A stretch of DNA of 64,000 bases from an uncultured Candidatus Saccharibacteria bacterium (GCA_964512925.1 CAZEKH010000002.1:122505-186504); one strand, 5' to 3'. Shown: positions 15,426 through 62,857, counted from the stretch's first letter. The notes: generated from the sequence alone by a model not told the origin. Translations and numbers: made by a program.

Positions 15426-16184
15426 TTATAATTTATTCCAGTTAAACTCAAAGATCATTTTTTGGGTTTGAAATATTGCTTGGTTTTGTATCACTACGCC
15501 CATAGGCTCTTCTTTTTCGTCCAGGCTGATGTGAGCAACTTTGCCGGCATAGATTATTTCGTGAGTAGATCCGACTTTTACCCCAGACCCAGAGACAGTG
15601 GATGGAATCGGCATATACTTTCTTTCATCCAAACCCATAAGCTGCCCCCCTTCGCCCAAAGAAATTATTTTTACCCCGATTTTTTTCGCAATTCTTTTTT
15701 TACTAAAGTCCGGCATATCCGCATACACGCTTTTTCTGTCCTTGGTGGTAGATGAGGAATACAGATAATATTCTTTTTCACCACAAGCCAAAACGTCTTC
15801 CAAAATTTGTTTTATGCCTTTAGCTCCCTCATAGAGTTTGACTGTGGGTTTGCCTCCCTGTTTTTCAAACAAAGTTTTTATATATGGCAGGCTGTTTTCC
15901 ACATTTTTTCTGACTTCGTCCAAATCTTCCTTTTTTTGGTCTATGGCAGAAAGCAGCTTTTCCGGTTGTTCCGCAACAAAATATTGCTTACTCTCTTTGT
16001 TAAAATAAGAAACTATACCCATTCCGATAAGCGACTTTAAAATGTCATACGAAGTGCCGCGGTTAACTTTGGATTTAAAAGCAATCTCTCGAACCGAAGA
16101 AGGACCTAACTCTACCAAGGCCAGGTAAACTGAAATTTCTTTTTCTGACAGGCCAAAATTTTTCAAAATTATCTGAATTTCCAT
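15426..16184 (-). CDS. TrmB-family transcriptional regulator
   Basis: N-terminal winged HTH (LSEKEISVYLALVELGPSSVREIA) and a TrmB-like C-terminal domain. Confidence 0.65.
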   Translation of the reverse strand: MEIQIILKNFGLSEKEISVYLALVELGPSSVREIAFKSKVNRGTSYDILKSLIGMGIVSYFNKESKQYFVAEQPEKLLSAIDQKKEDLDEVRKNVENSLPYIKTLFEKQGGKPTVKLYEGAKGIKQILEDVLACGEKEYYLYSSSTTKDRKSVYADMPDFSKKRIAKKIGVKIISLGEGGQLMGLDERKYMPIPSTVSGSGVKVGSTHEIIYAGKVAHISLDEKEEPMGVVIQNQAIFQTQKMIFEFNWNKL

Positions 16185-16312
16185 AGATATCTATCTTAAA
16201 ACTAAGATACAATTTTGTCAAATATTTTTCTACAATTTCTGTGGATAATCAAAATACCTTATAAATATAAGGTATTTTGATTTAATTTTTTTAATGTTTT
16301 TTCTACAAATAT

Positions 16313-17120: not shown

Positions 17121-17235
17121 CGCGTTGTCTAATATAAATTGAATATTGGGTACAGCAAATTTGAAAAGTTGAACCGCTCAGAATGGCTGATATAAAATCA
17201 AAGCCACAAATCGCTAGTCAAAATAGATTAAAACT

Positions 17236-20868
<3,633 letters not shown>

Positions 20869-28791: not shown

Positions 28792-30807
28792 TTATTCAAA
28801 AATCAAAGTTTCCAGCACAGTTGGTATATAAACCTGCTTAAAATCCTTGGCTTGTTTAGAGCTTTGAGCTATATGCTTGACCAGCTCCATACCCGGATAT
28901 TTTTGAAAAGCTTGATTTAAAATTATCTTCATCTGTTTCTCCATCCCTTCCAGCTGGTAAATCCTTGCCAAAAGAAGCATTGAAGTTATAGAGTATGAAC
29001 TCAGCCTAACTCCGACTTTGGCATATTCCCTTGCTTCTTTGAGCCTTCCGTCTTCAGCGATATAAAAAGCCTGGTGAGTCCACCTCAGGCCATAGAATTT
29101 GTCTTTTTCCAAAGCAGAATTCATTTCTTCAATGGATTTTTTTAAAAATTCTCGCTGGCCGGTCCTGTCATAAGCTAAAAAATTCAGCTTTGAAGCCAAA
29201 TAATCAGTTTTAGCATCCTGAGGGATCAGCCGTTTAAACTTCGAAATTTTTTGTTCCAATACCTTTTCGTCAACGCCATCTCTTAGCATATCTGAAGCGA
29301 TTTTATAACTTTGCGACGCCAAATTATTTGGCGCAAGCCTGCTGGACCATAAAAGCAGTTTTGAAGAAGCCTGAAATTTTTGTTGAAAAAATTTGGTCCG
29401 CCCTTGCATAAACAAATGATCAGCCAAAGTATATGAAATTCCAACCATTAACAAACAAGCAGCTAAAAACCCTAATAACATTCTAGTTACCGGATTAAGA
29501 CCAATATTTGTTGGGAGGCATCTTTTTGAAAACATCACTGCCAGATAAAAACCAAGCAGTAAAAAACAAGCCGAGGATACCGGATTAAAAGCAGCTGAAA
29601 TATACCAAGCTAAAACCCCCAAACCAATTGATAGTAAATAAAATTTTTCCTCAATTGCCAGATTATAATCCTCTTCAGACAGAATTTTTTGCCTTAAACT
29701 CCTGACAACTAAAAATAAACCGGAAAAGCCAAAGGCTAAAAACCAGATTAGAAATGGCAATCCTAAAGTAGCGCCCATATTTAAAAACAAATTATGAGCA
29801 TCGTCAAAAACTCCGTTTTGGTCCGATAAAGCCGCGCTTCTTTGATTTTCAAAAAATAACTGGAAATTTCCAGGACCAACTCCGGTTAGCGGATGCTGGG
29901 TTATAGCCGTAAGGGCGATGTCCCACACAAAAAATCTTAAATTTATATTGGTTTCTGACAAATTTAAGCTTGCTTGCAGGCTTTGCGGCCGTGAAATTGA
30001 GTTAGTCTGCCAAAGCAAAGCCAAACTAAAAAACCCAAGAAATAGCGCGGCTAATATCTTTCTTAAGTTAAAACGAAAAATTGCCAATGATACGGGCGTC
30101 ACGACCGCCAAAAAAACCAAAGCCAGCCAGCCTGCCCTACTGGACAACAGACAAATTCCTGCAACAATAAAAAAACTGCCAAAAATATAATATACCCTTG
30201 CCTTCAAAGATTTGGCAGAAAAAATCAACGGCAAAGACAAAGGCAAAACCGCTGATAAAAACATTGTGGAAAAATTCGGATTGCCTAACAAACTGGGCGC
30301 GCGGGCAAACACTGTTGTATCCCCAACCCCGTTATAAAAACCTACACCATAAGACTGGAGTACGGCAATCAGGCCGACAACAGTAGCATCAAAAAAAAGT
30401 ACTTTATAAAATACACTTAATTTTTTATAAATATTTTGCGTGGAAAAAAAAATAATTGTGAAAACAAATACAAACCAAAAAATAAAACTATTATCCAGCC
30501 TTGGGTAACTGCCTAACAAGCTGTTAATCAAATTTTGAGAGTAAATTAAACTTGGCAATAAAAGCAATGCCCCTAAAAGACAAAACCCAATAAATTTTTT
30601 ATTTGATTGCAAAACTTTAGCCTTTATACTGACCACAATCGGCGCTGACAAACTTACAAACCAAACTGCCAGTTTTACTGTTTCAAATTTTTCATAGGAA
30701 AGTACACTGAAAGCCAATGGGACTAAAAGTAGCAAAAAAAACAAGGCTGAAAAAGTCTGGTCCTCATAAAAAGGCAGTCTTGGAATTTTTATTTGTTTAA
30801 ACATCAA
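28792..30807 (-). CDS. Polytopic membrane protein with an O-antigen ligase (Wzy_C) domain and C-terminal TPR repeats; candidate pilin O-oligosaccharyltransferase
   Basis: Twelve or more TM segments, a central periplasmic loop, and a TPR-like C-terminus. Sits between pilD and the major pilin gene. Confidence 0.55.
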   Translation of the reverse strand: MMFKQIKIPRLPFYEDQTFSALFFLLLLVPLAFSVLSYEKFETVKLAVWFVSLSAPIVVSIKAKVLQSNKKFIGFCLLGALLLLPSLIYSQNLINSLLGSYPRLDNSFIFWFVFVFTIIFFSTQNIYKKLSVFYKVLFFDATVVGLIAVLQSYGVGFYNGVGDTTVFARAPSLLGNPNFSTMFLSAVLPLSLPLIFSAKSLKARVYYIFGSFFIVAGICLLSSRAGWLALVFLAVVTPVSLAIFRFNLRKILAALFLGFFSLALLWQTNSISRPQSLQASLNLSETNINLRFFVWDIALTAITQHPLTGVGPGNFQLFFENQRSAALSDQNGVFDDAHNLFLNMGATLGLPFLIWFLAFGFSGLFLVVRSLRQKILSEEDYNLAIEEKFYLLSIGLGVLAWYISAAFNPVSSACFLLLGFYLAVMFSKRCLPTNIGLNPVTRMLLGFLAACLLMVGISYTLADHLFMQGRTKFFQQKFQASSKLLLWSSRLAPNNLASQSYKIASDMLRDGVDEKVLEQKISKFKRLIPQDAKTDYLASKLNFLAYDRTGQREFLKKSIEEMNSALEKDKFYGLRWTHQAFYIAEDGRLKEAREYAKVGVRLSSYSITSMLLLARIYQLEGMEKQMKIILNQAFQKYPGMELVKHIAQSSKQAKDFKQVYIPTVLETLIFE

Positions 30808-31196
30808 TACTTTATTGTGATTGTATTCTGACCTTTGGATGCAACATTAAAATCATCTGGCAGGCAAAAATTTATTGTAGCCATTTTTTTGTCTGCCCTG
30901 GTGTAATTTAAAGGCTCAGGACACTCTTTAATTTTAAAAGTATTCGGCTTGCCGGACAAATATTGGGAAATAACTTTTTCGTTGCCAAACTCATTAGCCG
31001 TGGGCAGGCGGTCGTTATCTTTATAAAAAAAATCCAGCGCCATTTTCATTTCCTGCGCCGCCATAAAAACCGCCTCGCTTTCTGCCTCTCTTCTTCCCGA
31101 GCTTGCCCCTAAAAAAATACTTATAAATAAAAAAGCAGCCACTCCGATGACTGTTATAAAAATTTTTATCTGATTGTTTGTCATTTGAAAATCCAT
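30804..31196 (-). CDS. Divergent pilin paralogue lacking the prepilin cleavage motif
   Basis: GRREAESEAVFMAAQEMKMALDFFYKDNDRLPT aligns with PilA SARAKSRDAKRLADVRQLASAMELIFNDAGAYPT. The N-terminus has a TM helix but no G-1/F+1/E+5. Confidence 0.5.
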   Translation of the reverse strand: MDFQMTNNQIKIFITVIGVAAFLFISIFLGASSGRREAESEAVFMAAQEMKMALDFFYKDNDRLPTANEFGNEKVISQYLSGKPNTFKIKECPEPLNYTRADKKMATINFCLPDDFNVASKGQNTITIKY

Positions 31197-42353: not shown

Positions 42354-44612
42354 CTATAATTCTTTAACTTTACTTAACACCTCTTCAATATTAGCATTAG
42401 TTACCAGAAAGAAGTGCAGTTTTCCTTTCCCCAAACTTTGCCATACTTCTGCGAGAGCTACCTTATAAGCAGTATCTTCATTACTTACCCTGTCTTCGCC
42501 TTTCCATTCCAACGCAACCATGTTGCCCATCTTACTAAACGCAACAAAATCAGGATAAAACTTATTTTTCTGCCAGCCTTGTAAATAAAAATCCAATTTT
42601 TCTCTATTCCTTACCCAAAACTCTATATTTGGCAACATATCCAAATCTAACCTAGAAACAAAATTCTCTTCTTCTTTGTTTAACTTGCCAACTTGAGGAT
42701 AATAATTTTTATTAAAATCTTTAGGCAAAACCTTGTCCACGATTATTGTTTCTGGAAAAGTTTTAAAAGGCTTCGTGGAAACTTTTTTCTTTTTTATAAG
42801 ATCTTCAAAACGCTTTTTAGCATAATCCTTTAAAATTGCTTCAATAACTTCGCTTAATTTCTCACACAAAACATACCTGTTTATAGATAGCTCTGTTAGT
42901 GATCTTGTTTTTAACAAGTGGTTAATTGCTTTATCTAAAAACTTTACTTTGTCCGACTGTTCAAGCAGGGTAAAACGAAGTTTCTTATCTAGCCACTGCA
43001 CCAACTCTTTTTGTGTAGCGTTTTTTAAACGATAGGGTAAATTTAAATGCAGCTGCTTCCCTTGTTTCCAGTGGTCTCCCTCAATATCTATAATTGCACG
43101 GCCATCATTGTCAAAATGCACATCAAAATTAAATTCAGCCTCTTGTTTAGCTAGAGAAAAATCAGCGCCAATTAACTCCTCAAAAGTTAAAGGTTCGCCA
43201 TCTAAAGCCATCATAGGCACGGCAAAATCTTGTTTAAAAGCACGATGAATTTCTAGCGGATCTTTTTGGACTTTGTCAGTGCCATTTATTAAATCAGCTT
43301 TACTAAAGCCATTGGAAACCAGCCCTTTTATAATTTCGTCTGCGGCTTCGTTAAAGTTTCGGGCAGAAGCAAAAACAAAGCTTCTGTTTAAATCTTCAAC
43401 TTCTTTTCTTTTAGCGTAAGGCATTCGGATAATGCGGCCTATAATTTGTTCTACCGCAATCTTCGCACCAATGTTGGCAAGTGAAATTAATACATAAGCA
43501 AAAGAACAGTCCCAACCTTCAGCTAAGGCATTAACTGTAATAATATATTTAATCGGGCATTTGTTACTAAAAAGGTTTACACCTTCCAATTCGTTCTTTT
43601 CAGATGTTTTGATAGCTATTTCTTCTTCAGCTATTTTCATTTTTAATAGCTGTTCTTTAACCTGCTCAACAGTAATGTTATTTTGGGTTTTGCTATTTGG
43701 CTGTGCTTGAATTAAAGCAATTGGCCTTATATATTCGCCTTTATTTTTCTTGGTAAGCTTTTCTAATTCCTCACGCTTATCCAAACCCCGTGTTAAAGAT
43801 TGCTCCCAATGGTTAGAACTTTCTAATACAATTGGAATTTTAACCATTTGCTCGGTCTTCAAATCAGCCGCTGAAATGTCTACCAATATATTACTGCCAT
43901 CCCTAGGAGTAGCGGTATATTCTACAATAAAGCTCGGGTTAAGTTCTTTTAAAAAATCAACAGAAAGTTGGGTTTGGGTTCTATGCCCCTCGTCAATAAC
44001 AATTAGCGGATTATACATCCGAATCACATTGGCTAAAGATATAATTACTCCTGATTCATCTTTTTCTAGTAAGCTGTCATCTCCAATATTTTCAAAGAAA
44101 TTTAATAGCTGTCCGTTTTCTTGGTAAACTTTGTATTTCTTTTGCAAAGACTTCTCTTTCCTAAAAGCATCAAGAGAAGAAATTACAATACACAAATTAT
44201 CTTCAACATCTTCTTTGCGAATTCTTAAGGCTTCTTCATTCGAAAAAATCCTCACACCATTTTCAAAAACTTCATCCAAAATTTGCCTATGCCAGTCCTT
44301 CCGATCTTTAAGTTTATTTATCGTTTGAGTTTTAATTGCTTCGGACGGCACAAACCACATAACAATACCCCTGTCCATTTTATGTTTTAGTACAGTGCTA
44401 TAAATTAAACCAACAGAATTAGCGGCAACAACTGTTTTGCCACCTCCCGTAGGGATTTTTACGCACACAAAAGGCACTTCACCAAAAGAATTGGATTTAT
44501 AAGGCTCTTCAACCACACTCATAAAAGCCATCTTCGGGCCAAATTTCTCCAAAAGTTTTAAAAACTCTTTAAGCTTTTCCAGTGCAGTTTGTTGATATTT
44601 TTTTAGTTCCAT
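42354..44612 (-). CDS. res: Type III restriction enzyme, Res subunit (SF2 helicase-nuclease)
   Basis: Walker A PTGGGKT and DEGH box (VIDEGHR). 752 aa. Lies downstream of mod. Confidence 0.85.
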   Translation of the reverse strand: MELKKYQQTALEKLKEFLKLLEKFGPKMAFMSVVEEPYKSNSFGEVPFVCVKIPTGGGKTVVAANSVGLIYSTVLKHKMDRGIVMWFVPSEAIKTQTINKLKDRKDWHRQILDEVFENGVRIFSNEEALRIRKEDVEDNLCIVISSLDAFRKEKSLQKKYKVYQENGQLLNFFENIGDDSLLEKDESGVIISLANVIRMYNPLIVIDEGHRTQTQLSVDFLKELNPSFIVEYTATPRDGSNILVDISAADLKTEQMVKIPIVLESSNHWEQSLTRGLDKREELEKLTKKNKGEYIRPIALIQAQPNSKTQNNITVEQVKEQLLKMKIAEEEIAIKTSEKNELEGVNLFSNKCPIKYIITVNALAEGWDCSFAYVLISLANIGAKIAVEQIIGRIIRMPYAKRKEVEDLNRSFVFASARNFNEAADEIIKGLVSNGFSKADLINGTDKVQKDPLEIHRAFKQDFAVPMMALDGEPLTFEELIGADFSLAKQEAEFNFDVHFDNDGRAIIDIEGDHWKQGKQLHLNLPYRLKNATQKELVQWLDKKLRFTLLEQSDKVKFLDKAINHLLKTRSLTELSINRYVLCEKLSEVIEAILKDYAKKRFEDLIKKKKVSTKPFKTFPETIIVDKVLPKDFNKNYYPQVGKLNKEEENFVSRLDLDMLPNIEFWVRNREKLDFYLQGWQKNKFYPDFVAFSKMGNMVALEWKGEDRVSNEDTAYKVALAEVWQSLGKGKLHFFLVTNANIEEVLSKVKEL

Positions 44613-44737
44613 AAAAAATTTTAGTAATTGTGGGTAACTTGACGCATCCTAAAGTATGTTATAATATAAGTAATCAATAAGTAGGCCTCTTATAAGCGAA
44701 AGTCGGCTCCATGCCGTGCGTTGGGAAACCAACCTAG

Positions 44738-45520
44738 CTATAAGGGGCTTATTTTATTTATTGAGAAGGTGTTACCTCTGCTGTAAAAATTATTGGGATA
44801 TTTATCTGTATCATAAACGTCACAAACGAATTTTACTTTACTTTCAATAAATTTATAATAACGATCCTCGCCTCTTACAAAAGCTCTTTGAATAGCCCAA
44901 TTCATATAATCAACTATTTGCAAACATGCTTCTCCATATGGACTTTGTGGGAGAATGGCTATTTTTGAATCAATTTTCATTTTATGCTCAGTTTCAAATG
45001 AATTTTTTGCGGTTTGGATAGCTTCCTCCAAAGGAGCCTGGCGAGTTTTATTACCCCTAACAGCAAAGTAAATAAAAATTTGTTCAGCAACGTGTAATTT
45101 ATTTTTGAACAACTTAATTATTAAATCGTCATAGAATAAATTTTCTTTGCCTTTATGACGCACCTTAAAAATATTTTCAATTTTTCTTGCAACAATGAAT
45201 TCCGCTTTAAAATCTAAACCTAAAATAGTTTTATAAACTTTCTCTCTAATTTCCGGCGTATCGTCTTTAGCATGAAACGCTAAATGACTTTTCTTTAGCG
45301 AAGGAATATCTTTAAGATACTCATCGTTCTTTATCTCCTCATGAAGTTTGAATATTGCATTTCTTAAAGGTTCTGGGTTAGTTGTTTTGATGAAGCCAAG
45401 TAATAAAATTTTTGAACATCCCTCTTTGCCAACAATATACCTACCATATCTATCATAAAAAGTAGAATCACCGGCCTCATCCACAAAAAAATACTGGGTT
45501 TTTACATCATTCAACTTCAT
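44738..45520 (-). CDS. DUF3800-like protein inserted between mod and res
   Basis: N-terminal YFFVDEAGD and C-terminal LQIVDYMNWAIQRAF match the DUF3800 pattern. Confidence 0.5.
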   Translation of the reverse strand: MKLNDVKTQYFFVDEAGDSTFYDRYGRYIVGKEGCSKILLLGFIKTTNPEPLRNAIFKLHEEIKNDEYLKDIPSLKKSHLAFHAKDDTPEIREKVYKTILGLDFKAEFIVARKIENIFKVRHKGKENLFYDDLIIKLFKNKLHVAEQIFIYFAVRGNKTRQAPLEEAIQTAKNSFETEHKMKIDSKIAILPQSPYGEACLQIVDYMNWAIQRAFVRGEDRYYKFIESKVKFVCDVYDTDKYPNNFYSRGNTFSINKISPL

Positions 45521-45521
45521 A

Positions 45522-47075
45522 TTAGTAAACCCTTACCTCATAAGGGATTTGTTTAAAGATTAAATTATACTTTTCTAAATCCGAATTATCCAGTAAACAC
45601 CTATCAGCATAAATGACTTTCTTGCTTCCGTCTTTTTTCAGCTTCTTTAGAAAAGATTTGTCTAAAATGTTGTTACCTTTTTCCCTAAATAACAAATAAA
45701 ATTCGGTTTCGCCAAACGTTCCAATAAAATTATTTCTAATATTTTTTGGATCAATGTTGGTCTGGGTTTCGGTAAAATAAATATAGGTTGCAAGCTGATT
45801 AAATTCGCACTCTTCTTCTATTTGACCTTCTTCATTAAACAAAGGCTTGCTAAGTTCACAATATTCAAATCCATCATTGTAATCATATTTTTTAATGGCA
45901 CGCCTAACACGCTCGGCTGTTATATCCTTAGCAACTTTATCTTCCATTTCGACCATTATAAATTTACGATCACCTCCATCTTCTTTATTTAGATCCATCA
46001 CAGCATGGCCTGTTGTGCCAGATCCAGCAAAGGAGTCTAAAATTATTGAGTTTTTATCTGTTGATAATTGTAAAATCCTCTTTAGTAATCTGACTGGTTT
46101 TGGGGTCGCAAAAGGAACTTGTTCTAATTCTTCAAAAAATAACTTTATCTCTCTTTTGGCTTCTTGATTATGACCTACTTCATCGGAAACCCAAATGGTA
46201 TCTACTTTTTTTCCTTGCTGTACTTCGGTTAAAAATCTTTTTAGCCTAGGAAAAGCTGTTCCGTCTTTACCAAACCAGATTCTATTTTCAGCAATCATAT
46301 TCAAAAGATTGTCTTTAGAGTAAACCCAATGCTTGCCTTTGGGTACATTGTATTTCTTTCCTTTGGGGGCTGTTATCTCATAATAACCTTCTTTCCTCTC
46401 TTCGTTCGCAACCAAATCACCAGAAGACCATGGACCCCTTGGGTCATTATCAGGATTTTGAAACCTGGCATTCATTGATTCTGTGCGAGGTAAAAGGTTT
46501 ATTACTATCTTTTCTAAATTATTTGCATAACAAAAAATATATTCGTGGTTGTCTGAGACATATTTTGCATCATTCTTAGTACTGTGAATTTTTTCCCAAA
46601 TAAAATTGGCAATAAAATTTTCACGACCAAAAACTTCATCCATAAGCCCTTTAAAATAGTGACCTTCATAATCATCTATAGAAACAAAAATCATTCCATC
46701 ATCGGATAATAAATCCTTTAAAAGTTTAAGTCGAGGCAACATCATACATAGCCATTTATCATGACGGTTTAAATCTTCAGACTCTCGCCCCACAACCTTT
46801 CCTAACCACTTTTTTATTTTTGGTGAATTAACTTTGTCATTGTAAACCCAGCCCTCGTTACCAGTGTTGTACGGGGGATCTATGTAAATACATTTAACCT
46901 TACCGGCATAGTAAGGCATTAAAGCCTTAAGAGCTTCTAGATTATCACCATGTATAATTAAATTTTGCGAATGGTCACCGACAGAAGCGCTTTTAACTTT
47001 TTTCAGAAGTCTAAAGGGTACTTCTTTATCGTGGTTAGCAACTGCTTCTTTACCAATCCAGTTTAAAGTAGGCAT
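45522..47075 (-). CDS. mod: Type III R-M N6-adenine DNA methyltransferase, Mod subunit
   Basis: IYIDPPYNTGNEGW (motif IV, DPPY) and a C-terminal FAGSGTTGHAV (motif I). Confidence 0.85.
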   Translation of the reverse strand: MPTLNWIGKEAVANHDKEVPFRLLKKVKSASVGDHSQNLIIHGDNLEALKALMPYYAGKVKCIYIDPPYNTGNEGWVYNDKVNSPKIKKWLGKVVGRESEDLNRHDKWLCMMLPRLKLLKDLLSDDGMIFVSIDDYEGHYFKGLMDEVFGRENFIANFIWEKIHSTKNDAKYVSDNHEYIFCYANNLEKIVINLLPRTESMNARFQNPDNDPRGPWSSGDLVANEERKEGYYEITAPKGKKYNVPKGKHWVYSKDNLLNMIAENRIWFGKDGTAFPRLKRFLTEVQQGKKVDTIWVSDEVGHNQEAKREIKLFFEELEQVPFATPKPVRLLKRILQLSTDKNSIILDSFAGSGTTGHAVMDLNKEDGGDRKFIMVEMEDKVAKDITAERVRRAIKKYDYNDGFEYCELSKPLFNEEGQIEEECEFNQLATYIYFTETQTNIDPKNIRNNFIGTFGETEFYLLFREKGNNILDKSFLKKLKKDGSKKVIYADRCLLDNSDLEKYNLIFKQIPYEVRVY

Positions 47076-56670: not shown

Positions 56671-56847
56671 CATCGCGAGGTCCCCAGCAATATCTTGAAA
56701 GCTGTGGGATAACAAAATCCTCATTATAATTGCAGTAGCCTGCCGCCCTCACACTCAATGGTGTGTTATGGGTTTGCGCGTCCATATCTACCCTAAGTTA
56801 GAGTTTTCAGCAGGCCACGAAAATACGATACAACAAAATTCAATTTT

Positions 56848-56886
56848 TGTCAAACTATTGACAAAACCTATAAAATATGCTATATT
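56848..56886 (+). promoter_or_regulatory. Consensus sigma70-like promoter (TTGACA-17-TATATT) with an overlapping palindrome TTGTCAAACTATTGACAA; the transcript would be leaderless or nearly so
   Basis: -35 at 56858-56863 and -10 at 56881-56886. The ATG at 56893 lies 7 nt after the -10. Confidence 0.5.
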
Positions 56887-56892
56887 TTCCAT

Positions 56893-58470
56893 ATGTTAAA
56901 TGGAGGAAAAAGACTTCTGCAAAACGCCTTTTTGGCGACCCTCCTGCTGGTGGGCGCATGCCCCCAGCTTTCGCTCGCGCAACCTCCTTCAGCTGAGCCC
57001 TGGTTCGTCCAGGCACTCAAGATGAACGAACTGCGCCGATCTAGCGCAAGCTTCCCCACGACTTACGTTGTGGGCGATGGGGTCAACTGCAACGACCCCG
57101 CCCTTGCCGGACGGATCGACAGCGCTAAAAGTTTTAGCGTAGTCGATTCGGCTCCTTGCCAAGGGAGCATCTGGCAACACGAGACCAGTGTTGCCAAAGT
57201 TGCTTCGGCCATCGGAGGCCGAGTTGCTAGCGCCAAAATTTTCTCGCTTCCAGAAAAGCAAATCAAGCCTCTGGAATATAAAGCGGCCGACATCAATGCT
57301 GCTTTTGAGAAAATAGCCGACCAAACCAAGAGCGAAGAATTCGCAATTATCAACGCATCGCTCTTTGGTTCAGGTCCAGAGCTCGTAAAAGTGCTGAAAA
57401 GCATGGAAAAAAGAGTTCTCGTCATAGCAAGTGCCGGCAACAACGGCACAACCACTGTCGATAATCCGTGTTGGTTTGGACTCGATCTACCTAACGTCTT
57501 GTGCGTTGGGGCGGTTGAGCAGAGTGGCAAACTCTGGAACTCGAGCAATCGAGGCGCCAGGGTAGAAATGGCCGCTTTCGGCGTCAACATGTACCCAGGA
57601 GTAACGGGTACATCGTTCTCAGCCCCGGTTGTTTCGGGGCTCGCAAGCTCACTCTTTGCAGCGCTAAAAGCGCGGGGATATAGCCCCACGCCAGCAGTGC
57701 TAAAACAGATTCTAATTCAGGGCTCAACCCTGAACGAAAATCTCAAAGGCCTGATCGGAAACCCGAGGCAGGCCAGCGGCGAGAATCTTCTTTCTCTCGC
57801 CCAGAGGGTGTACGCCCCCTGGCCGATAGAGGCAACGGCATTCTCTCCCTTCCCGATCGGTTGGGAAGGCGAGCAGGCAGCGGTAAAAATTTCCGGAGCG
57901 CCCATCAGCCTCCGGCAACTCGGTGTCACCCTGAAACTTCGTGGAGAAAAGGGAGATGTGACAAACATCACCCCAACCTCTGTCGAGAGTGTTCAGGGCA
58001 ATGATGCCCTCTATTTCCCCGCTCCCAAAGCGGGTCGCTACTGGCTTTCTTTGAGTGTTGAGGGTCTCCCCTCGACTCTAGAAACGCCGATAACCATCAA
58101 TCCCCGCCGCAAGGCAGGTCTGATGTTCGGCAGTCGTGGCGCTGCACCGGACTGGTTTGCCCTTCCGGGCGAGGAGCTCCTGCTCCAGATCCCCGGATTC
58201 TCAACCGTTCCCTCCACGCAGATCGAAGCGTGGATCGGAATTTCGCCCCAGGGCGAAGAAACAGAATGGCACCAGGCTGTCATCCTCTCTTCCGCCCAAA
58301 ACTCGGAGCCTGGCTACTTTGAGGCAATAGCCCAGCTCCCGACTGAACTGTCGCCCTTTGAGGGAGTTGCGACCCTCGTACTGCGAGTTCAAGGCAAGTT
58401 CCTTGACTCGCAAATTGAAGTATTTTTGTCCTCCCCTCCGGCTCGTCACCGCCGGCCACGGGGCAGGTAA
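56893..58470 (+). CDS. Secreted subtilisin-like (S8) serine peptidase; GC-rich, likely horizontally acquired
   Basis: Signal peptide, Asp (VVGDGVN), His (HETSVA) and Ser (GTSFSAP) in S8 order. GC is about 58% with foreign codon usage. Confidence 0.75.
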   Translation: MLNGGKRLLQNAFLATLLLVGACPQLSLAQPPSAEPWFVQALKMNELRRSSASFPTTYVVGDGVNCNDPALAGRIDSAKSFSVVDSAPCQGSIWQHETSVAKVASAIGGRVASAKIFSLPEKQIKPLEYKAADINAAFEKIADQTKSEEFAIINASLFGSGPELVKVLKSMEKRVLVIASAGNNGTTTVDNPCWFGLDLPNVLCVGAVEQSGKLWNSSNRGARVEMAAFGVNMYPGVTGTSFSAPVVSGLASSLFAALKARGYSPTPAVLKQILIQGSTLNENLKGLIGNPRQASGENLLSLAQRVYAPWPIEATAFSPFPIGWEGEQAAVKISGAPISLRQLGVTLKLRGEKGDVTNITPTSVESVQGNDALYFPAPKAGRYWLSLSVEGLPSTLETPITINPRRKAGLMFGSRGAAPDWFALPGEELLLQIPGFSTVPSTQIEAWIGISPQGEETEWHQAVILSSAQNSEPGYFEAIAQLPTELSPFEGVATLVLRVQGKFLDSQIEVFLSSPPARHRRPRGR

Positions 58471-58493
58471 CTAGGATGCGCTTCAGCATCCGC

Positions 58494-58540
58494 GGACCGA
58501 CCAGCGCTAAGCCTCACGCGCTGCTCGGTCCTTTTTCTTT
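58494..58540 (+). terminator. Strong terminator after the S8 peptidase gene
   Basis: ggaccgaccagcgc...gcgctgctcggtcc followed by TTTTTCTTTT. Confidence 0.75.
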
Positions 58541-58616
58541 TCCCAAAAATATTTTCCTAAATTTGGGTGAATGGTAAATTTTTACTCACCCCCTGTATCT
58601 TTTTTAAAAACTGTCG

Positions 58617-58650
58617 TGTCAACTATGACACATATGTGTTATGTTTGACA
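58617..58650. repeat. 34-bp palindromic element TGTCAACTATGACACATATGTGTTATGTTTGACA, copy 1
   Basis: Near-identical to 62565..62598 (1 mismatch) and related to the perfect palindrome at 62424. Confidence 0.75.
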
Positions 58651-58797
58651 TTTTTTTATTCCCGATTCATCCACCCCACAAACAATTCCTATTTTAAATA
58701 GTATAAGCATCATTCCAACATTCTTGAGAATGTCAGAATGTTGTTTTTATGCAGCTTTGTGATCGTTATAGTTATCGTTAATTTGTTTCTATCCCCC

Positions 58798-61700
58798 CTA
58801 CCACCCCCATCCCATATCTCCTTTGTCTGTATAGACTTTCAGAGTTTTAAGGCCAGGGTGAGTTTGATGGATCTTGCCTTGCTGGTCTTTACCTGTAAGG
58901 GTTGTTTGTTTAACAGGTTTTTGTTGAAAGATGGCTTGTAAAGTAAAGTCTTTCTTAGACTTAATGGTCTGGGTAAGTTTGTCTAGCTTGTTCTTGTCTA
59001 ACTGCCAGTTAAACCTTAATACTGTCTTAGTTAAGTCTACAGGGAGGCTATTGTAACTAAGGCTTAATACTTCAGCTTTTAAAGCTTTTTTTCTGTCTTT
59101 GTCGGTAAGTTTAAGGATAGTGGTATTTCCTGCTTTGTCTTGAGCTTTTATGCCGTCAGGCAGATAGTCTATGTAAACAGGCAGGCTGTAGTTAGTCTGG
59201 CTTAATACTGGTTCTTTGGACTTTCTGTCTAAAGCAGATAGAGCTATATCATTCTTAGTTACATCAAACTCCATTAGTATTTCAGGAGGGGTCTTATCTA
59301 TGGTAAAGCTAAGGGTATTGAAGGCTTCTTTGTTGCCTGCTTTGTCAATGGAGTAAAAAGACAGGGTGTGAGAGCCTTCTTCTGTCAGGGTTAAGGGAGA
59401 AGAACTGGCTTGATTTAAGGATAAAGGATCAAAGGCCAAAGATGACTGCCAGCCTTGGTTATCCAGGTTATACATTATCTTTAACACTCCAGAAGTTTCT
59501 GCTTCTTTGCCTGGCAATACCGGGTCTAAGGCAGAGAGAGTTACCTTAACCTCGCTGCGGTAAAACCCAACCTCTCCCATAGTTCCTGCTATGGTAGAAG
59601 TAGACACAGGAGGAACCAGATCTTGTGATTGTTGGGGGTTTAGGAGGGAGGAGGGAAGGATGTTTTTGTCTACACTGCCATCACCATCTGTATCCAGCTG
59701 AAGCTGAGTTTGTTCTCCTAGCAAAACCATGCCTAAAAGAGAGGGGGTGACGGGGAGGTTTGGAAAGATTTCAGTTTTGGTTTCTTGATCGTCAACTATG
59801 GTTTTGCTTCTTAGGGTAAACGTGCCGTTTCCCGTGCCTTTGAGCTTAATCTGATACTGCTGCCCCTCGTCGTCCGGCAAAAAAAGATACTTATGGTCGC
59901 CCCAGATTTGAAGTGATGCCCCGGGAATGTCGTTTTGAACGCTGCCGTCTTCAGCAAGCCTTGTTTCATTGCCCTGGCTGTCTATTGCTTCAACATCTAC
60001 TGGACTTAAGATATGGATTTCTCTGCCTTTGAGCTGGCATTGTTCTGGGTTTTGGATCAGCTGATTGTAATTAATAATGTTCTTAGTGGGCAGAGAGGAA
60101 CCGGTTAAAATGTTAACAATTTTTTCTCTGATCCCATCCTGGGACAACATCTTTCCGTGGTCTGGTTTGATGGCGTAAAATCTATGGTCATTTAAAGCTC
60201 TGTTTGAGTCTGAGCTTTCAAAAGGCACAGTAGAGTCTCCAGAAACATTTTTTGGGGAGTCATAAACTGTCTCTTTCGTGGTTATGGTTTTGGAGGGGTT
60301 AAAGGGATCATTGGCATTGGTGGTCAGATAAAAGGTATTTTCCACCACGCTTTCAAAGGTATGGCTTTTACAGCCAGTGATGTTGTAGAAATCTATGCCT
60401 TGGTCAGCCAGCCGGAAATTCTCAAAGCCCTGTGAGTGAACACCCTGGGAGTTTTTTACCATCTCTGTGCCCAAGCTGTTGGCGTCGTGATTTACCAGAT
60501 AATCATAGGATTCTTCAAAGTTATAACTATGCTCATAAACAGGGTTTTGGGTACTGTCTATTTTCTTTAGAAAAGAACCGTTGAGGTTGTAGTAGGATAG
60601 GGAGGGGGAGAGGTCATAGGAAACAGGAAAATTTAATGAAAGTTTTTTCATTTCAAGATCGTTTAGTCCATAGATGTCAAAATTATCACCAGCTAACAAT
60701 ACTTTTACAGCTTTGGGAGCTCCTAAATTTGGAACTCCCACAAAAATAGTTTTTCCTATTTTATGATCTGTCGGATGATTTACAGCATATTTTTTAACAA
60801 TCAAACCTCCTGTTGAATGGGCTATTACATCAACTTTTTGAACCGCTCTGCCTGCGTCAGTTTGGTTTAAAATATACTGCATTTGTCCTTCAAAATTCTG
60901 AACAATATTGTCTGAAGCCCCATACCGCCAATCATAAGGGAAAGTAAAAAGGTCTTTCCCTTCAGTGTAACCTTTTGATATTAAAAGGTTGATTAGAGAG
61001 TCGGAGTAGTCAAAAAGTGTAATTTCTCTTTTTGTTGGTAATTTTTGAATTTTTTTTCTTATAATACCAAGAATATCTAAATTATTATATTTTGGAATCA
61101 TACTGCTAATAAATTCCAATTTATCCATAAAACTATCAGAGTTTACAGGATTTATCATCCTAACAATATCTGCCCACAACAAATCATCCCCTTGCTTTAA
61201 TTCTGTGCCTAATATCCCCGGCACAATCAAAACAGGTGTAAGGCCAGGAGTTGGAGTTGGCACAGGTACATTGTAGATGGCTTTTAGTCTTACTTTCGGT
61301 GTCTGTATCCAAGGAGGGTATTGAGCTGTTTGTGAAGCCAGACCTAAGGTAAAAAAAGGAGCATTTGGGTTAAGTCCTGAAGGTAAACCTAATATGGTTA
61401 ATTCTTCTGCAGTATCTTCATTAAAAGCTTTTAAATCATAGTAACCGTCTGGTCTTTCTACTGCTTTTATGAGTAAGTGACTGATGTTTATGAGGTTTGT
61501 GTATTCAGAAGGGTAATATACAGGAGGATAGTAATAAAAATAGCTGCCAAAGTTATTTGGGCAGCCGTCTGAAAACATATTATCTAGGGAGTAGAAGGAA
61601 AAGGGAGAAACCGCTATAAAGTCACCATTGAGGGTAAAATGAAACTTTACCAAACCATCTGGACCATAGTCATAGGTGATGTCTGTAACCGAGGTGCCGT

Positions 61701-61812
61701 TGTACATAGCATCGGCGCATTTGTTTATACCGAGGATAGTGTCAGCGGAAGAAAATAGGGGTAAAAGAAGGAGAAAGAGGGATGAAAAAAGAAAGAAAGT
61801 AAATTTTTTCAT
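58798..61812 (-). CDS. Large secreted alpha/beta-hydrolase of the LCAT/PGAP1-like lipase family with a long beta-rich C-terminal extension
   Basis: Signal peptide (MKKFTFFLFSSLFLLLLPLFSSA), a FPYDWRYG LCAT-type motif, a nucleophile elbow AHSTGG, and a C-terminal ~600 aa rich in T/S/G. The ORF track extends to 61854, but the Met at 61812 gives a proper signal peptide. Confidence 0.7.
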   Translation of the reverse strand: MKKFTFFLFSSLFLLLLPLFSSADTILGINKCADAMYNGTSVTDITYDYGPDGLVKFHFTLNGDFIAVSPFSFYSLDNMFSDGCPNNFGSYFYYYPPVYYPSEYTNLINISHLLIKAVERPDGYYDLKAFNEDTAEELTILGLPSGLNPNAPFFTLGLASQTAQYPPWIQTPKVRLKAIYNVPVPTPTPGLTPVLIVPGILGTELKQGDDLLWADIVRMINPVNSDSFMDKLEFISSMIPKYNNLDILGIIRKKIQKLPTKREITLFDYSDSLINLLISKGYTEGKDLFTFPYDWRYGASDNIVQNFEGQMQYILNQTDAGRAVQKVDVIAHSTGGLIVKKYAVNHPTDHKIGKTIFVGVPNLGAPKAVKVLLAGDNFDIYGLNDLEMKKLSLNFPVSYDLSPSLSYYNLNGSFLKKIDSTQNPVYEHSYNFEESYDYLVNHDANSLGTEMVKNSQGVHSQGFENFRLADQGIDFYNITGCKSHTFESVVENTFYLTTNANDPFNPSKTITTKETVYDSPKNVSGDSTVPFESSDSNRALNDHRFYAIKPDHGKMLSQDGIREKIVNILTGSSLPTKNIINYNQLIQNPEQCQLKGREIHILSPVDVEAIDSQGNETRLAEDGSVQNDIPGASLQIWGDHKYLFLPDDEGQQYQIKLKGTGNGTFTLRSKTIVDDQETKTEIFPNLPVTPSLLGMVLLGEQTQLQLDTDGDGSVDKNILPSSLLNPQQSQDLVPPVSTSTIAGTMGEVGFYRSEVKVTLSALDPVLPGKEAETSGVLKIMYNLDNQGWQSSLAFDPLSLNQASSSPLTLTEEGSHTLSFYSIDKAGNKEAFNTLSFTIDKTPPEILMEFDVTKNDIALSALDRKSKEPVLSQTNYSLPVYIDYLPDGIKAQDKAGNTTILKLTDKDRKKALKAEVLSLSYNSLPVDLTKTVLRFNWQLDKNKLDKLTQTIKSKKDFTLQAIFQQKPVKQTTLTGKDQQGKIHQTHPGLKTLKVYTDKGDMGWGW

Positions 61813-61828
61813 AAAATTTTGAATTAAA

Positions 61829-62164
61829 TCAGGCTCCCATGTGGAGAGTGGCAAATAAAATATAAAATATAAAAAATGACCATAAGCTAAGCAAGCTAAT
61901 TAGTAACATTAAAATTTTTTTATACTTTAAATTTTTAGATTTATATATATTAATCATTACTATAATTAGACCAATAAACTGGAAAAGGGTGATATATATT
62001 AAACTTAGATGATTGTCATCATTAGATATATAATTTTTATTAAAAGGTAAAATTCCTAAAATAGGACTCCATAAAATCTCCGGTACCGCAAACATCCCTA
62101 AACCTATATACAACCAATTTTTATGTCTTTTTTCCATATTTTTCCTTTCAAAAAAAGCCGCCAT
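61829..62164 (-). CDS. Small polytopic membrane protein
   Basis: 111 aa with three hydrophobic segments. Overlaps the lipase start by a few codons. Confidence 0.35.
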   Translation of the reverse strand: MAAFFERKNMEKRHKNWLYIGLGMFAVPEILWSPILGILPFNKNYISNDDNHLSLIYITLFQFIGLIIVMINIYKSKNLKYKKILMLLISLLSLWSFFIFYILFATLHMGA

Positions 62165-62423
62165 AAAAGGCGACTTTTAATATTTGAAGCTAAATAACAG
62201 TTTAATATTTTTCAACATCATAATACAATAACTATAACTCTGAGAGGTATTTGGTGTCAAAAAGGTTTTTCCACAGGAAATTTTAACTTGTTTTATATAG
62301 ATTTTCTATCATTGACAGCATCCCAACCCAATTTGATCCGCCTTGTAGCCCACATACGAGCAGGTAACGATTTTTAACCGATTCTCCTGACATTCACCTC
62401 CCTCACCAACCAAACCCAACCTC

Positions 62424-62457
62424 TGTCAAACTAGTCACATATGTGACTAGTTTGACA
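62424..62457. repeat. Perfect 34-bp palindrome TGTCAAACTAGTCACATATGTGACTAGTTTGACA, copy 2
   Basis: Read directly: a 16-bp stem with a 2-nt centre. Confidence 0.75.
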
Positions 62458-62564
62458 TTTTTAACTTTTGCAATTGTTGTAGGTTTTCTTGTAATTTTTC
62501 CAAACCGCCTTCAACCTTCCTAAATCCATCTTTAAAAAATCCCAATCACTTTAAAAAATTTTGC

Positions 62565-62598
62565 TGTCAACTATGACACATATGTGTTACGTTTGACA
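62565..62598. repeat. 34-bp palindromic element, copy 3 (extended to TTGCTGTCAA...TTGACAGCAA)
   Basis: TGTCAACTATGACACATATGTGTTACGTTTGACA. Confidence 0.75.
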
Positions 62599-62824
62599 GC
62601 AATTCAAAATGCTAAAAATTTTGCTTTTAAAGGATCTATCAAACGCAACATAATTATAAACAAAATTTGAAAAATTTATTGTAGATTTTGATTTGAATTT
62701 AGACCTTGAGGGTTTTGAGACGCTAAATGATTCAACATCTTGCATACAATAAAGCGACACTTCAAAAAACTCAGTGGAAATTCTAGGATATTTACTCAAA
62801 AAAACCAATAAAATACAAATTAAA

Positions 62825-62857
62825 AAACATTCCGTTTATAGCGGAATGTTTTTTTCA
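62825..62857. terminator. Bidirectional terminator
   Basis: aacattccg-tttatag-cggaatgtt flanked by A/T runs. Confidence 0.65.

Follow-up and report, generated by a model that had tools for sequence, protein, structure and literature searches.

REP and BIME elements are extragenic palindromes of about 35-40 bp that lie behind genes or between convergent genes; they form sharply bounded units at unrelated loci, belong to lineage-specific families, may give hairpins at mRNA 3' ends and are linked to rearrangement. The attC sites are 55-141 bp long, carry L''/L' boxes, an unpaired central spacer and extrahelical bases, and stand at the 3' ends of open reading frames (ORFs). The loxP and FRT sites join 13-bp inverted arms to an 8-bp centre, 34 bp in all, and dif is an 11-6-11 site of 28-31 bp found in single copy at the terminus. 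Inverted half-sites also serve the Escherichia coli regulator PaaX, which binds the widely spaced hexamers TGATTC-N27-GAATCA (PMC9493321). Here we describe three 34-bp palindromes, named A1, A2 and B, that surround a lipase operon in a stretch of 64,000 nucleotides (the window) from an uncultured Candidatus Saccharibacteria bacterium (GCA_964512925.1 CAZEKH010000002.1:122505-186504), and we compare them with these systems. To our knowledge few mobile elements are recognisable in the tiny genomes of the Patescibacteria, or candidate phyla radiation (CPR), whose regulation and genome plasticity are almost uncharted. As judged from their sequence, A1, A2 and B are shown here to be members of a family of 34-40-bp intergenic palindromic repeats present in several Patescibacteria lineages. 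The family is previously undescribed, and literature searches found no paper on the motif.

A1 (TGTCAACTATGACACATATGTGTTATGTTTGACA) and A2 stand in direct orientation relative to each other and agree at 33 of 34 positions, with a single mismatch (T to C); none of 100 shuffled sequences gave any such match. B (TGTCAAACTAGTCACATATGTGACTAGTTTGACA) is a perfect 17+17 palindrome, likewise without an equal in shuffled sequence, that matches the A-type at 26 of 34 positions. An earlier note on this DNA had described 34-bp palindromes flanking the lipase gene. Its coordinates and sequences are exact for all sites, and it was right that the outer copies differ by one nucleotide and that B is perfect, but perfect symmetry does not extend to A1 and A2. 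Positions 7-28, 8-27 and 11-24 are non-Watson-Crick pairs in both, A2 has a fourth at 9-26, and all of them fall in the middle of the arms. The palindrome of A2 extends outward to TTGC...GCAA and continues on the minus strand into AAAATTTTTT. The pattern TGTCAA-N(2-30)-TTGACA occurs four times in the 64 kb against 0.08 expected, each time within 56848-62598, and CACATATGTG, the central sequence, is restricted within the window to the three 34-mers, whose centre ACATATGT is symmetric in A and B alike. Beyond the 34-mer the similarity is lost, and the flanks of A1 and A2 resemble each other no more than shuffled sequences do (p=0.23). An extended flank homology, suggested for A1/A2 and for 56848/B by repeat search and MAFFT, was rejected as not above chance. 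Rfam searches, at the gathering threshold for the window and by E-value for 56.5-64 kb, returned only chance-level matches at the palindromes.

The family was traced by an exact-pattern scan of 185,579 species genomes, which found four loci in two Patescibacteria metagenome-assembled genomes (MAGs) with two copies each, and by a looser pattern in metagenomes, which added further loci. All Patescibacteria matches are perfect palindromes of the form TT-TGTCAAAC[G/T]AGTCACATATGTGACT[C/A]GTTTGACA-AA. The variable triplet is AGG/CCT in L001, ACAATA/TATTGT takes its place in L011, and B recurs without change on the metagenome contigs L018 and L022. The loci fall into orthologous groups, with the palindrome between ppa and an alpha/beta-hydrolase gene (L002, L004, L022), at the 3' end of a HAD hydrolase gene (L003, L007, L018), between dcd and folA (L001), and in L011. 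Flanking proteins at orthologous loci are 74-78% identical, and in alignments of the spacers the palindrome stands as a conserved island while the remainder has diverged. Within these groups a change of CGA/TCG to CTA/TAG is present on both arms, and the only unbiased covariation is a double change, G to T with C to A, within two of the groups. All 14 sites are intergenic and 34-40 bp long; 11 lie no more than 70 nt past a stop codon, usually at 20-70 nt. The roughly nine independent spacers comprise five between convergent genes, four or five between tandem genes and none between divergent genes.

A search for homologues of the hydrolase gave the orthologous hydrolase-ppa loci independently of the motif. 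In L002, L004 and L022 the spacer holds the palindrome plus a GC-rich bidirectional terminator, while L033 (70% identity) and L041 (55%) have only the terminator. In L035 and L036 the same spacer carries an AT-rich version, TAGTCA-N7-ACAWWTGT-N7-TGACTA, with A/T-run flanks and no other terminator. The element is thus present, varied or absent, and has therefore been gained, lost or replaced at a fixed locus. A generic scan for 13-bp complementary arms around the 8-bp centre RCAWWTGY recovered every member of the family, the three window sites among them, had no match in shuffled sequence, and gave four sites in about 190 kb of Patescibacteria DNA fetched via proteins, two in L029 and two in L035. 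The L029 sites have the form CTGAAC-N22-GTTCAG. Across the family the arms are lineage-specific, with the ends TGTCAA/TTGACA, CTGAAC/GTTCAG or TAGTCA/TGACTA, and CA-WW-TG is invariant; the L035 centre, ACAWWTGT, is the sole case with an asymmetric WW. A 38-mer compared by BLAST with plasmids and phages had no match.

Paired palindromes enclose one to three genes in three genomes. The pair in the window spans 3.9 kb and holds the 111-aa and LCAT operon, the pair in L029 spans 0.75 kb with a PaaX-like gene, and that in L035 spans 3.1 kb with genes for an H+-PPase and a hydrolase. Between A1 and A2 lies a complete expression unit consisting of a promoter-like site, the gene for a 111-aa membrane protein and the LCAT lipase gene; a small membrane protein followed by LCAT is a conserved two-gene unit among the Patescibacteria loci compared. 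The palindrome at the HAD locus marks a break in synteny: gene order is the same on one side of it, but beyond the other side L003 and L007 have a different neighbour from L018. The lipase unit itself appears to be displaced. The type IV pilus clusters of L026 and L027 are collinear with the window at 21.7-39 kb (PilT 83%, PilB 75% and T2SSF 70% identity), and in both the 111-aa/LCAT unit lies between the homologue of a 130-aa protein and Wzy_C. The order in L026 is pilin, 130-aa, 111-aa, LCAT, Wzy_C; in the window it is pilin, 130-aa, Wzy_C, in otherwise identical synteny. Here the 130-aa and Wzy_C genes overlap (30804-30807), and the 111-aa/LCAT unit is found 28 kb away between A1 and A2. 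Since LCAT and Wzy_C are also adjacent in L028 and L031, we infer that the arrangement in the window is the derived one. The GC skew of the LCAT coding strand is -0.124, that of neighbouring genes on the same strand about +0.12, and this difference fits a past inversion, relocation or foreign origin.

We favour the interpretation that the palindromes are recombination-prone boundary elements, REP-, attC- or lox/dif-like, recognised by an unlinked dimeric protein, and give it a probability of about 0.38. It is suggested by the sharp edges, fixed geometry and lineage-specific arms of the sites, by gain and loss at one locus, and by the synteny breakpoint, the gene-bracketing pairs and the displaced operon. 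Both arms would be recognised, either as duplex or as an extruded hairpin, by a dimeric protein whose gene lies elsewhere in the genome, and exchange between two copies would excise the flanked module and re-insert it at another copy; the lipase operon may in this way have come to lie between A1 and A2. Transcribed copies are predicted to form very stable hairpins (-16 to -27 kcal/mol), which would probably serve as barriers or terminators at 3' ends, and this would account for the survival of copies only behind genes. Such RNA hairpins would then be a secondary consequence of the boundary elements.

Several observations weigh against this interpretation. Neither the 64-kb window nor any of the fetched loci encodes a recombinase, a transposase or an HUH enzyme, and several functional recombination sites on one small chromosome would be hazardous. 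Where single sites have been conserved over long times at orthologous loci, a host function accounts for them more readily than mobility does. Template-switch correction of quasi-palindromes can be another source of perfect symmetry. The covariation count over all family members is high but partly circular, because the rows had been chosen as palindromes. The direction in which the lipase module moved is inferred, not proven, and its neighbours vary widely among Patescibacteria. A search for an empty site by way of the 178-aa gene that flanks the module met no homologue of this gene in the database.

A further-reaching form of the boundary-element interpretation, which we consider unlikely, is an undescribed gene-cassette system of Patescibacteria in which 34-bp lox-like sites delimit mobile modules of 1-4 kb moved by an unlinked recombinase. 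The modules would be the lipase operon here, the PaaX-like gene in L029 and the H+-PPase and hydrolase genes in L035, single conserved sites would serve as docking points, and in a variant of this proposal a membrane-anchored winged helix-turn-helix/Cas2-like protein would be the cognate site-binding or processing factor. The suggestion that a cassette of about 4 kb with terminal repeats carries the lipase gene had already been made in the earlier note. It is borne out in part by the sharply bounded direct repeats A1 and A2 around a self-contained operon, by the absence of this operon from its conserved place in the pilus cluster and by related pairs that bracket modules in two other genomes; no recombinase was found in the window or the fetched loci.

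The boundary-element interpretation has two competitors to be taken seriously. In the first the palindromes act at the RNA level, as hairpins or terminators in 3' untranslated regions with a REP-like function, the bracketing of genes being a side effect and recombination having no role. This is possible, if rather doubtful. The predicted stems have z-scores of -3 to -9, the positions just past stop codons and between convergent genes suit such a role, and each copy in the window has a T-run on one strand (plus for A1 and B, minus for A2), B being scored as terminator-like. Both wobble pairs of A1 are on the plus strand, where its predicted RNA fold reaches -16.1 kcal/mol compared with -10.5 on the minus strand. 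In the convergent spacer of L035 and L036 the A/T-flanked variant palindrome is the only terminator-like structure, and in L036, where the centre is now asymmetric, the stem is retained via a G-U pair. In genomes of about 50% GC, however, the palindrome is flanked by TT...AA, lacks a U-tract and sits between the stop codon and a separate canonical GC-rich terminator; the copies in L001-L003, L007, L018 and L022 have AA after the stem and such a separate terminator. The S8 peptidase gene has a strong terminator of its own at 58494-58541, and so does the 178-aa gene (62822-62854), so that A2 and B are not needed to end the latter. Termination likewise leaves unexplained why the same 34 nt, centre included, recur at unrelated loci and genomes, and why the mismatches of imperfect copies fall solely in the middle of the arms.

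A protein that might bind such sites was met at two palindrome loci reached independently. The palindrome in L011 lies 44 nt after the stop codon of a gene whose 221-aa product combines a transmembrane segment with a winged helix and a PaaX_M (Cas2-like) domain, and this product is 40% identical to the one encoded between the two L029 palindromes. In L029 (12580-13369) two 42-bp palindromes (ATTTCTGAACTTTTGTCGCAATTGCGACAAAAGTTCAGAAAT) enclose the gene for the transmembrane, winged-helix and PaaX_M protein directly after an LCAT lipase gene, and the upstream copy overlaps a plausible promoter of the enclosed gene. Beyond the bracketed gene L029 has a type IV secretion-like cluster (PrgI, TraC-like, VirB4) and a bAvd gene. 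In the second competing interpretation the palindromes would accordingly be duplex DNA sites for a dimeric regulator or a chromosome-membrane tether, with this membrane-anchored protein as the candidate, though we think it improbable. Besides the neighbourhood of the PaaX_M genes and the promoter overlap, such binding would suit the outer hexamers and the centre, which are kept as blocks across loci and genomes with variation only between them, the low copy number of the sites, and the spacing of TGTCAA-N22-TTGACA, comparably wide to that of the E. coli PaaX hexamers (TGATTC-N27-GAATCA; PMC9493321). On the other hand, no homologue of the protein is present in the window or at seven other palindrome loci; scans of viral contigs gave none, and a PDB sequence search gave nothing. 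The sites also occupy 3' ends and avoid divergent promoter regions, independent recognition of half-sites would not need symmetry at positions that vary between copies, and neither the displaced operon nor the synteny breakpoint is explained.

The earlier note had proposed that a single dimeric regulator, for instance the TrmB-like protein, controls the secreted S8 peptidase together with the lipase and has the palindromes as its operators; this is very improbable. In favour of such operators a related 16-mer overlaps the -35 box of the S8 promoter-like site, and B and A2 stand upstream of the lipase operon. Yet B and A2 are 164-340 nt upstream of the promoter-like site of the operon, and A1 is downstream of both genes. 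The same palindrome is found elsewhere beside ppa, dcd/folA and the HAD hydrolase gene, at the 3' ends of housekeeping genes and not at promoters. Four of the six other LCAT lipase loci are without any such palindrome, and the check for an association with lipase found no related palindrome in L026, L028, L030, L031 and L032. The window has no regulator other than TrmB, and the promoter of TrmB carries a palindrome of another kind. The TrmB gene (15426-16184, minus strand) is preceded by a 36-bp near-perfect palindrome, AATCAAAATACCTTATAAATATAAGGTATTTTGATT, at 16240-16282, which is probably its own operator; a perfect DnaA-box 9-mer overlaps the left end of this palindrome.

The short palindrome at 56848 had been regarded as a relative of the 34-mers on the -35 box of the S8 promoter. 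The overlap holds, but the relation does not carry far. In the 18-mer at 56847-56864, arms of 7 bp enclose a non-symmetric ACTA, only the 10-mer TGTCAAACTA is in common with B, the geometry of the 34-mers is absent, and its flanks are no more similar to those of B than shuffled sequence is (p=0.37). A kinship with the 34-mers, limited as it is to one common 10-mer, is unproven. The 16-mer within it provides promoter-like sites in both directions, TTGACA-17-TATATT on the plus strand and TTGACA-17-TATCGT on the minus strand. That the TTGACA halves of the 34-mers are themselves outward -35 boxes of back-to-back sigma-70 promoter cores, another suggestion of the earlier note, is plausible for this 16-mer alone and hardly credible for A1, A2 and B, where none of six outward hexamers has an acceptable, well-spaced -10 box on either strand, orthologous alignments show no conserved -10 box, and most sites, as promoters, would direct antisense transcription into converging genes.

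Other readings were tried and rejected. There was no support for LexA. For parS or oriC, no TGTTNCACGTGAAACA was found within two mismatches, the single match with three mismatches is at chance level, and DnaA-box-like 9-mers are scattered and unclustered at the locus. TIGR-Tas arrays were rejected as the sites are isolated, not tandem, and there is no Tas gene. The LacI-family operator, a 16-bp palindrome (TGnnAAnCGnTTnnCA) with a central CG, differs from the window sites, which lack the central CG, and the window has no LacI gene. Tandem TGTCAA-N4-TTGACA matches in metagenomes were not accepted into the family, being LacI-type operators or phage iterons of unrelated organisms. On Firmicutes-like contigs (L013 7762-7830, L014 1176-1209, L017 808-860) they are tandem LacI-type operators, TGTCAAnCGnTTGACA, that separate a LacI-family gene from a sugar ABC transporter operon, and on the AT-rich phage-like contig L012 (1418-1560) at least six TGTCAA-N4/5-TTGACR iterons form an array. 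L026 (22140) and L030 (4922 and 13699) carry palindromes of a second family, with a REP-like GTAG foot (GTAGGGRACGGT...ACCGTYCCCTAC); one copy lies within the ligA reading frame.

The features discussed are listed in Table 1.

Table 1. Palindromes, genes and signals of the lipase locus and of the pilus-cluster junction, in window coordinates
Feature	Position	Strand	Remarks
130-aa/Wzy_C junction, type IV pilus cluster	28792..31196	-	111-aa and LCAT genes present in L026, absent here
18-mer TTGTCAAACTATTGACAA	56847..56864	.	each hexamer is the -35 box of one of two divergent promoter-like sites
S8 peptidase promoter-like site TTGACA-17-TATATT	56858..56886	+	-10 box ends 6 nt 5' of the ATG at 56893
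S8 (subtilase) peptidase gene	56893..58470	+	GC 55.6%
A1	58617..58650	+	imperfect 34-bp palindrome; lies where the S8 peptidase and LCAT lipase genes converge; T7 after it (plus strand)
LCAT-family lipase gene, 1004 aa	58798..61812	-	second gene of the bracketed module
111-aa membrane protein gene	61829..62164	-	conserved upstream partner of LCAT in other Patescibacteria
Promoter-like site TTGACA-18-TATAGT	62231..62260	-	inside the bracketed segment, upstream of the 111-aa/LCAT operon
B	62424..62457	.	perfect 34-bp palindrome; 259 nt upstream of the 111-aa gene start; T5 follows (plus strand)
A2	62565..62598	+	direct-repeat copy of A1, 33/34 identical
Canonical terminator of the 178-aa gene	62822..62854	-	A/T-flanked

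Around the palindromes the order is the gene of a 1474-aa LamG protein (minus strand), the S8 peptidase gene (plus), A1, LCAT and the 111-aa gene (both minus), the promoter-like site, B and A2; past A2 come the terminator and the 178-aa orphan gene. The S8 mRNA would be leaderless, since the -10 box ends so close to the ATG, and the GC content of the gene (55.6% against about 40% in the window) suggests that it was horizontally acquired. On the minus strand at 62150-62260, the TTGACA-18-TATAGT site is followed by a hairpin with a U7 run directly 5' of the ribosome-binding site of the 111-aa/LCAT operon, which may be a leader or attenuator. Just downstream of B, a 36-aa ORF (62283-62393, minus strand) has a strong GGGAGGTG Shine-Dalgarno motif. 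The exact lipase protein was retrieved solely on a 3.7-kb Logan contig. Among the Logan contigs of the source sample SRR14271336, L005 ends 3 nt beyond A2 and L025 starts at the centre of B, so that the palindromes coincide with assembly breaks. Shared 31-mers do not account for the break past A2, which could be due to heterogeneity of the population at the module boundary.

In other respects the window is an ordinary segment of a Patescibacteria chromosome with glycolytic genes, a full type IV pilus cluster, a 5S rRNA gene and genes for tRNA-Ile and tRNA-Ala. The 23S rRNA gene (17224-20855) measures 3632 nt compared with a 2925-nt model and contains an insertion of about 700 nt (an intron or intervening sequence of the CPR type); the tRNA-Ile/Ala genes, at 39.1-39.6 kb, are not linked to the 23S gene. 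Beside RecQ is a type III restriction-modification locus (42354-47075) with a res helicase, a DUF3800 gene and an N6/N4 methylase.

A sequence-specific, conserved palindromic repeat would offer a testable handle on how accessory functions are shuffled in CPR genomes. The repeat marks the boundaries of gene modules and coincides here with the relocation of an operon, for a lipase of the surface or secreted, whose usual place is in the type IV pilus cluster. The repeat may also be a lead to a factor, so far uncharacterised, that binds DNA or RNA. In practical terms, the palindromes coincide with breaks in short-read contigs and are of use as a marker for a narrow CPR clade.

As far as comparison of sequences can tell, the palindromes lack defining features of each of the families REP/RAYT, attC, lox and dif, and yet they share traits with all of these and with two kinds of regulatory signal. 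Like intrinsic terminators they are stable hairpins between convergent genes, with A/T-run flanks in A1, B, A2, L035 and L036, but the stem is AT-rich, 15-20 bp long and conserved in sequence, and most copies have no U-tract and lie tens of nucleotides from a canonical terminator. With PaaX operators they share two 6-bp inverted half-sites more than two helical turns apart and a PaaX_M gene beside family members (L011, L029), whereas the half-sites and their spacing (N22 against N27) differ, the centre is conserved as well, the sites are not at promoters of catabolic operons, and the candidate protein, anchored by a transmembrane segment, is without the C-terminal domain of PaaX. The likeness to loxP and FRT is one of geometry only. 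Direct repeats around a displaced module, in an element without its own recombinase, also recall loxP, IMEX and pdif, the last two of which use host Xer. Unlike lox sites, however, A and B have a symmetric centre and thus no polarity, no cognate recombinase gene is present in the DNA examined, and, in contrast to both lox and dif, there are several sites per chromosome and single sites conserved at housekeeping loci. Compared with the single dif of a chromosome there are three copies in 4 kb here and at least two loci per MAG, their geometry is not 11-6-11, and the GC skew of the window has no terminus-type switch.

The attC sites resemble the palindromes in their position at ORF 3' ends, in their palindromic form and in that successive sites bracket one to three co-oriented genes, and clusters of attC sites lacking integrases (CALINs) require no adjacent integrase. 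Set against the attC ends RYYYAAC/GTTRRRY, GTCAAAC and GTTTGAC agree at 6 of 7 positions apiece and the left end of the A-type at 5 of 7; L035-type sites have no match. The palindromes are nevertheless shorter, at 34-40 bp, and mostly fully paired, form no arrays and have no IntI, and the bracketed lipase module has its own promoter-like site. Compared with REPs, they lack the GTAG/CTAC foot, most copies are perfect where REPs are imperfect, and those counted here are few (three in the 64 kb, all within 4 kb, and two per MAG by the exact pattern) against tens to hundreds per genome. No Y1/HUH transposase accompanies them, Y1_Tnp having no match in the window or the fetched loci, and their sequence is kept across genomes whose orthologous proteins are only about 75% identical. 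They resemble REP and BIME elements in size, in extragenic position, in sharp boundaries at unrelated loci, in lineage-specific families, in possible mRNA 3' hairpins and in the link to rearrangement, and the RAYT gene that lies between two REPs in a REPtron has its likeness in the PaaX-like gene between two copies in L029.

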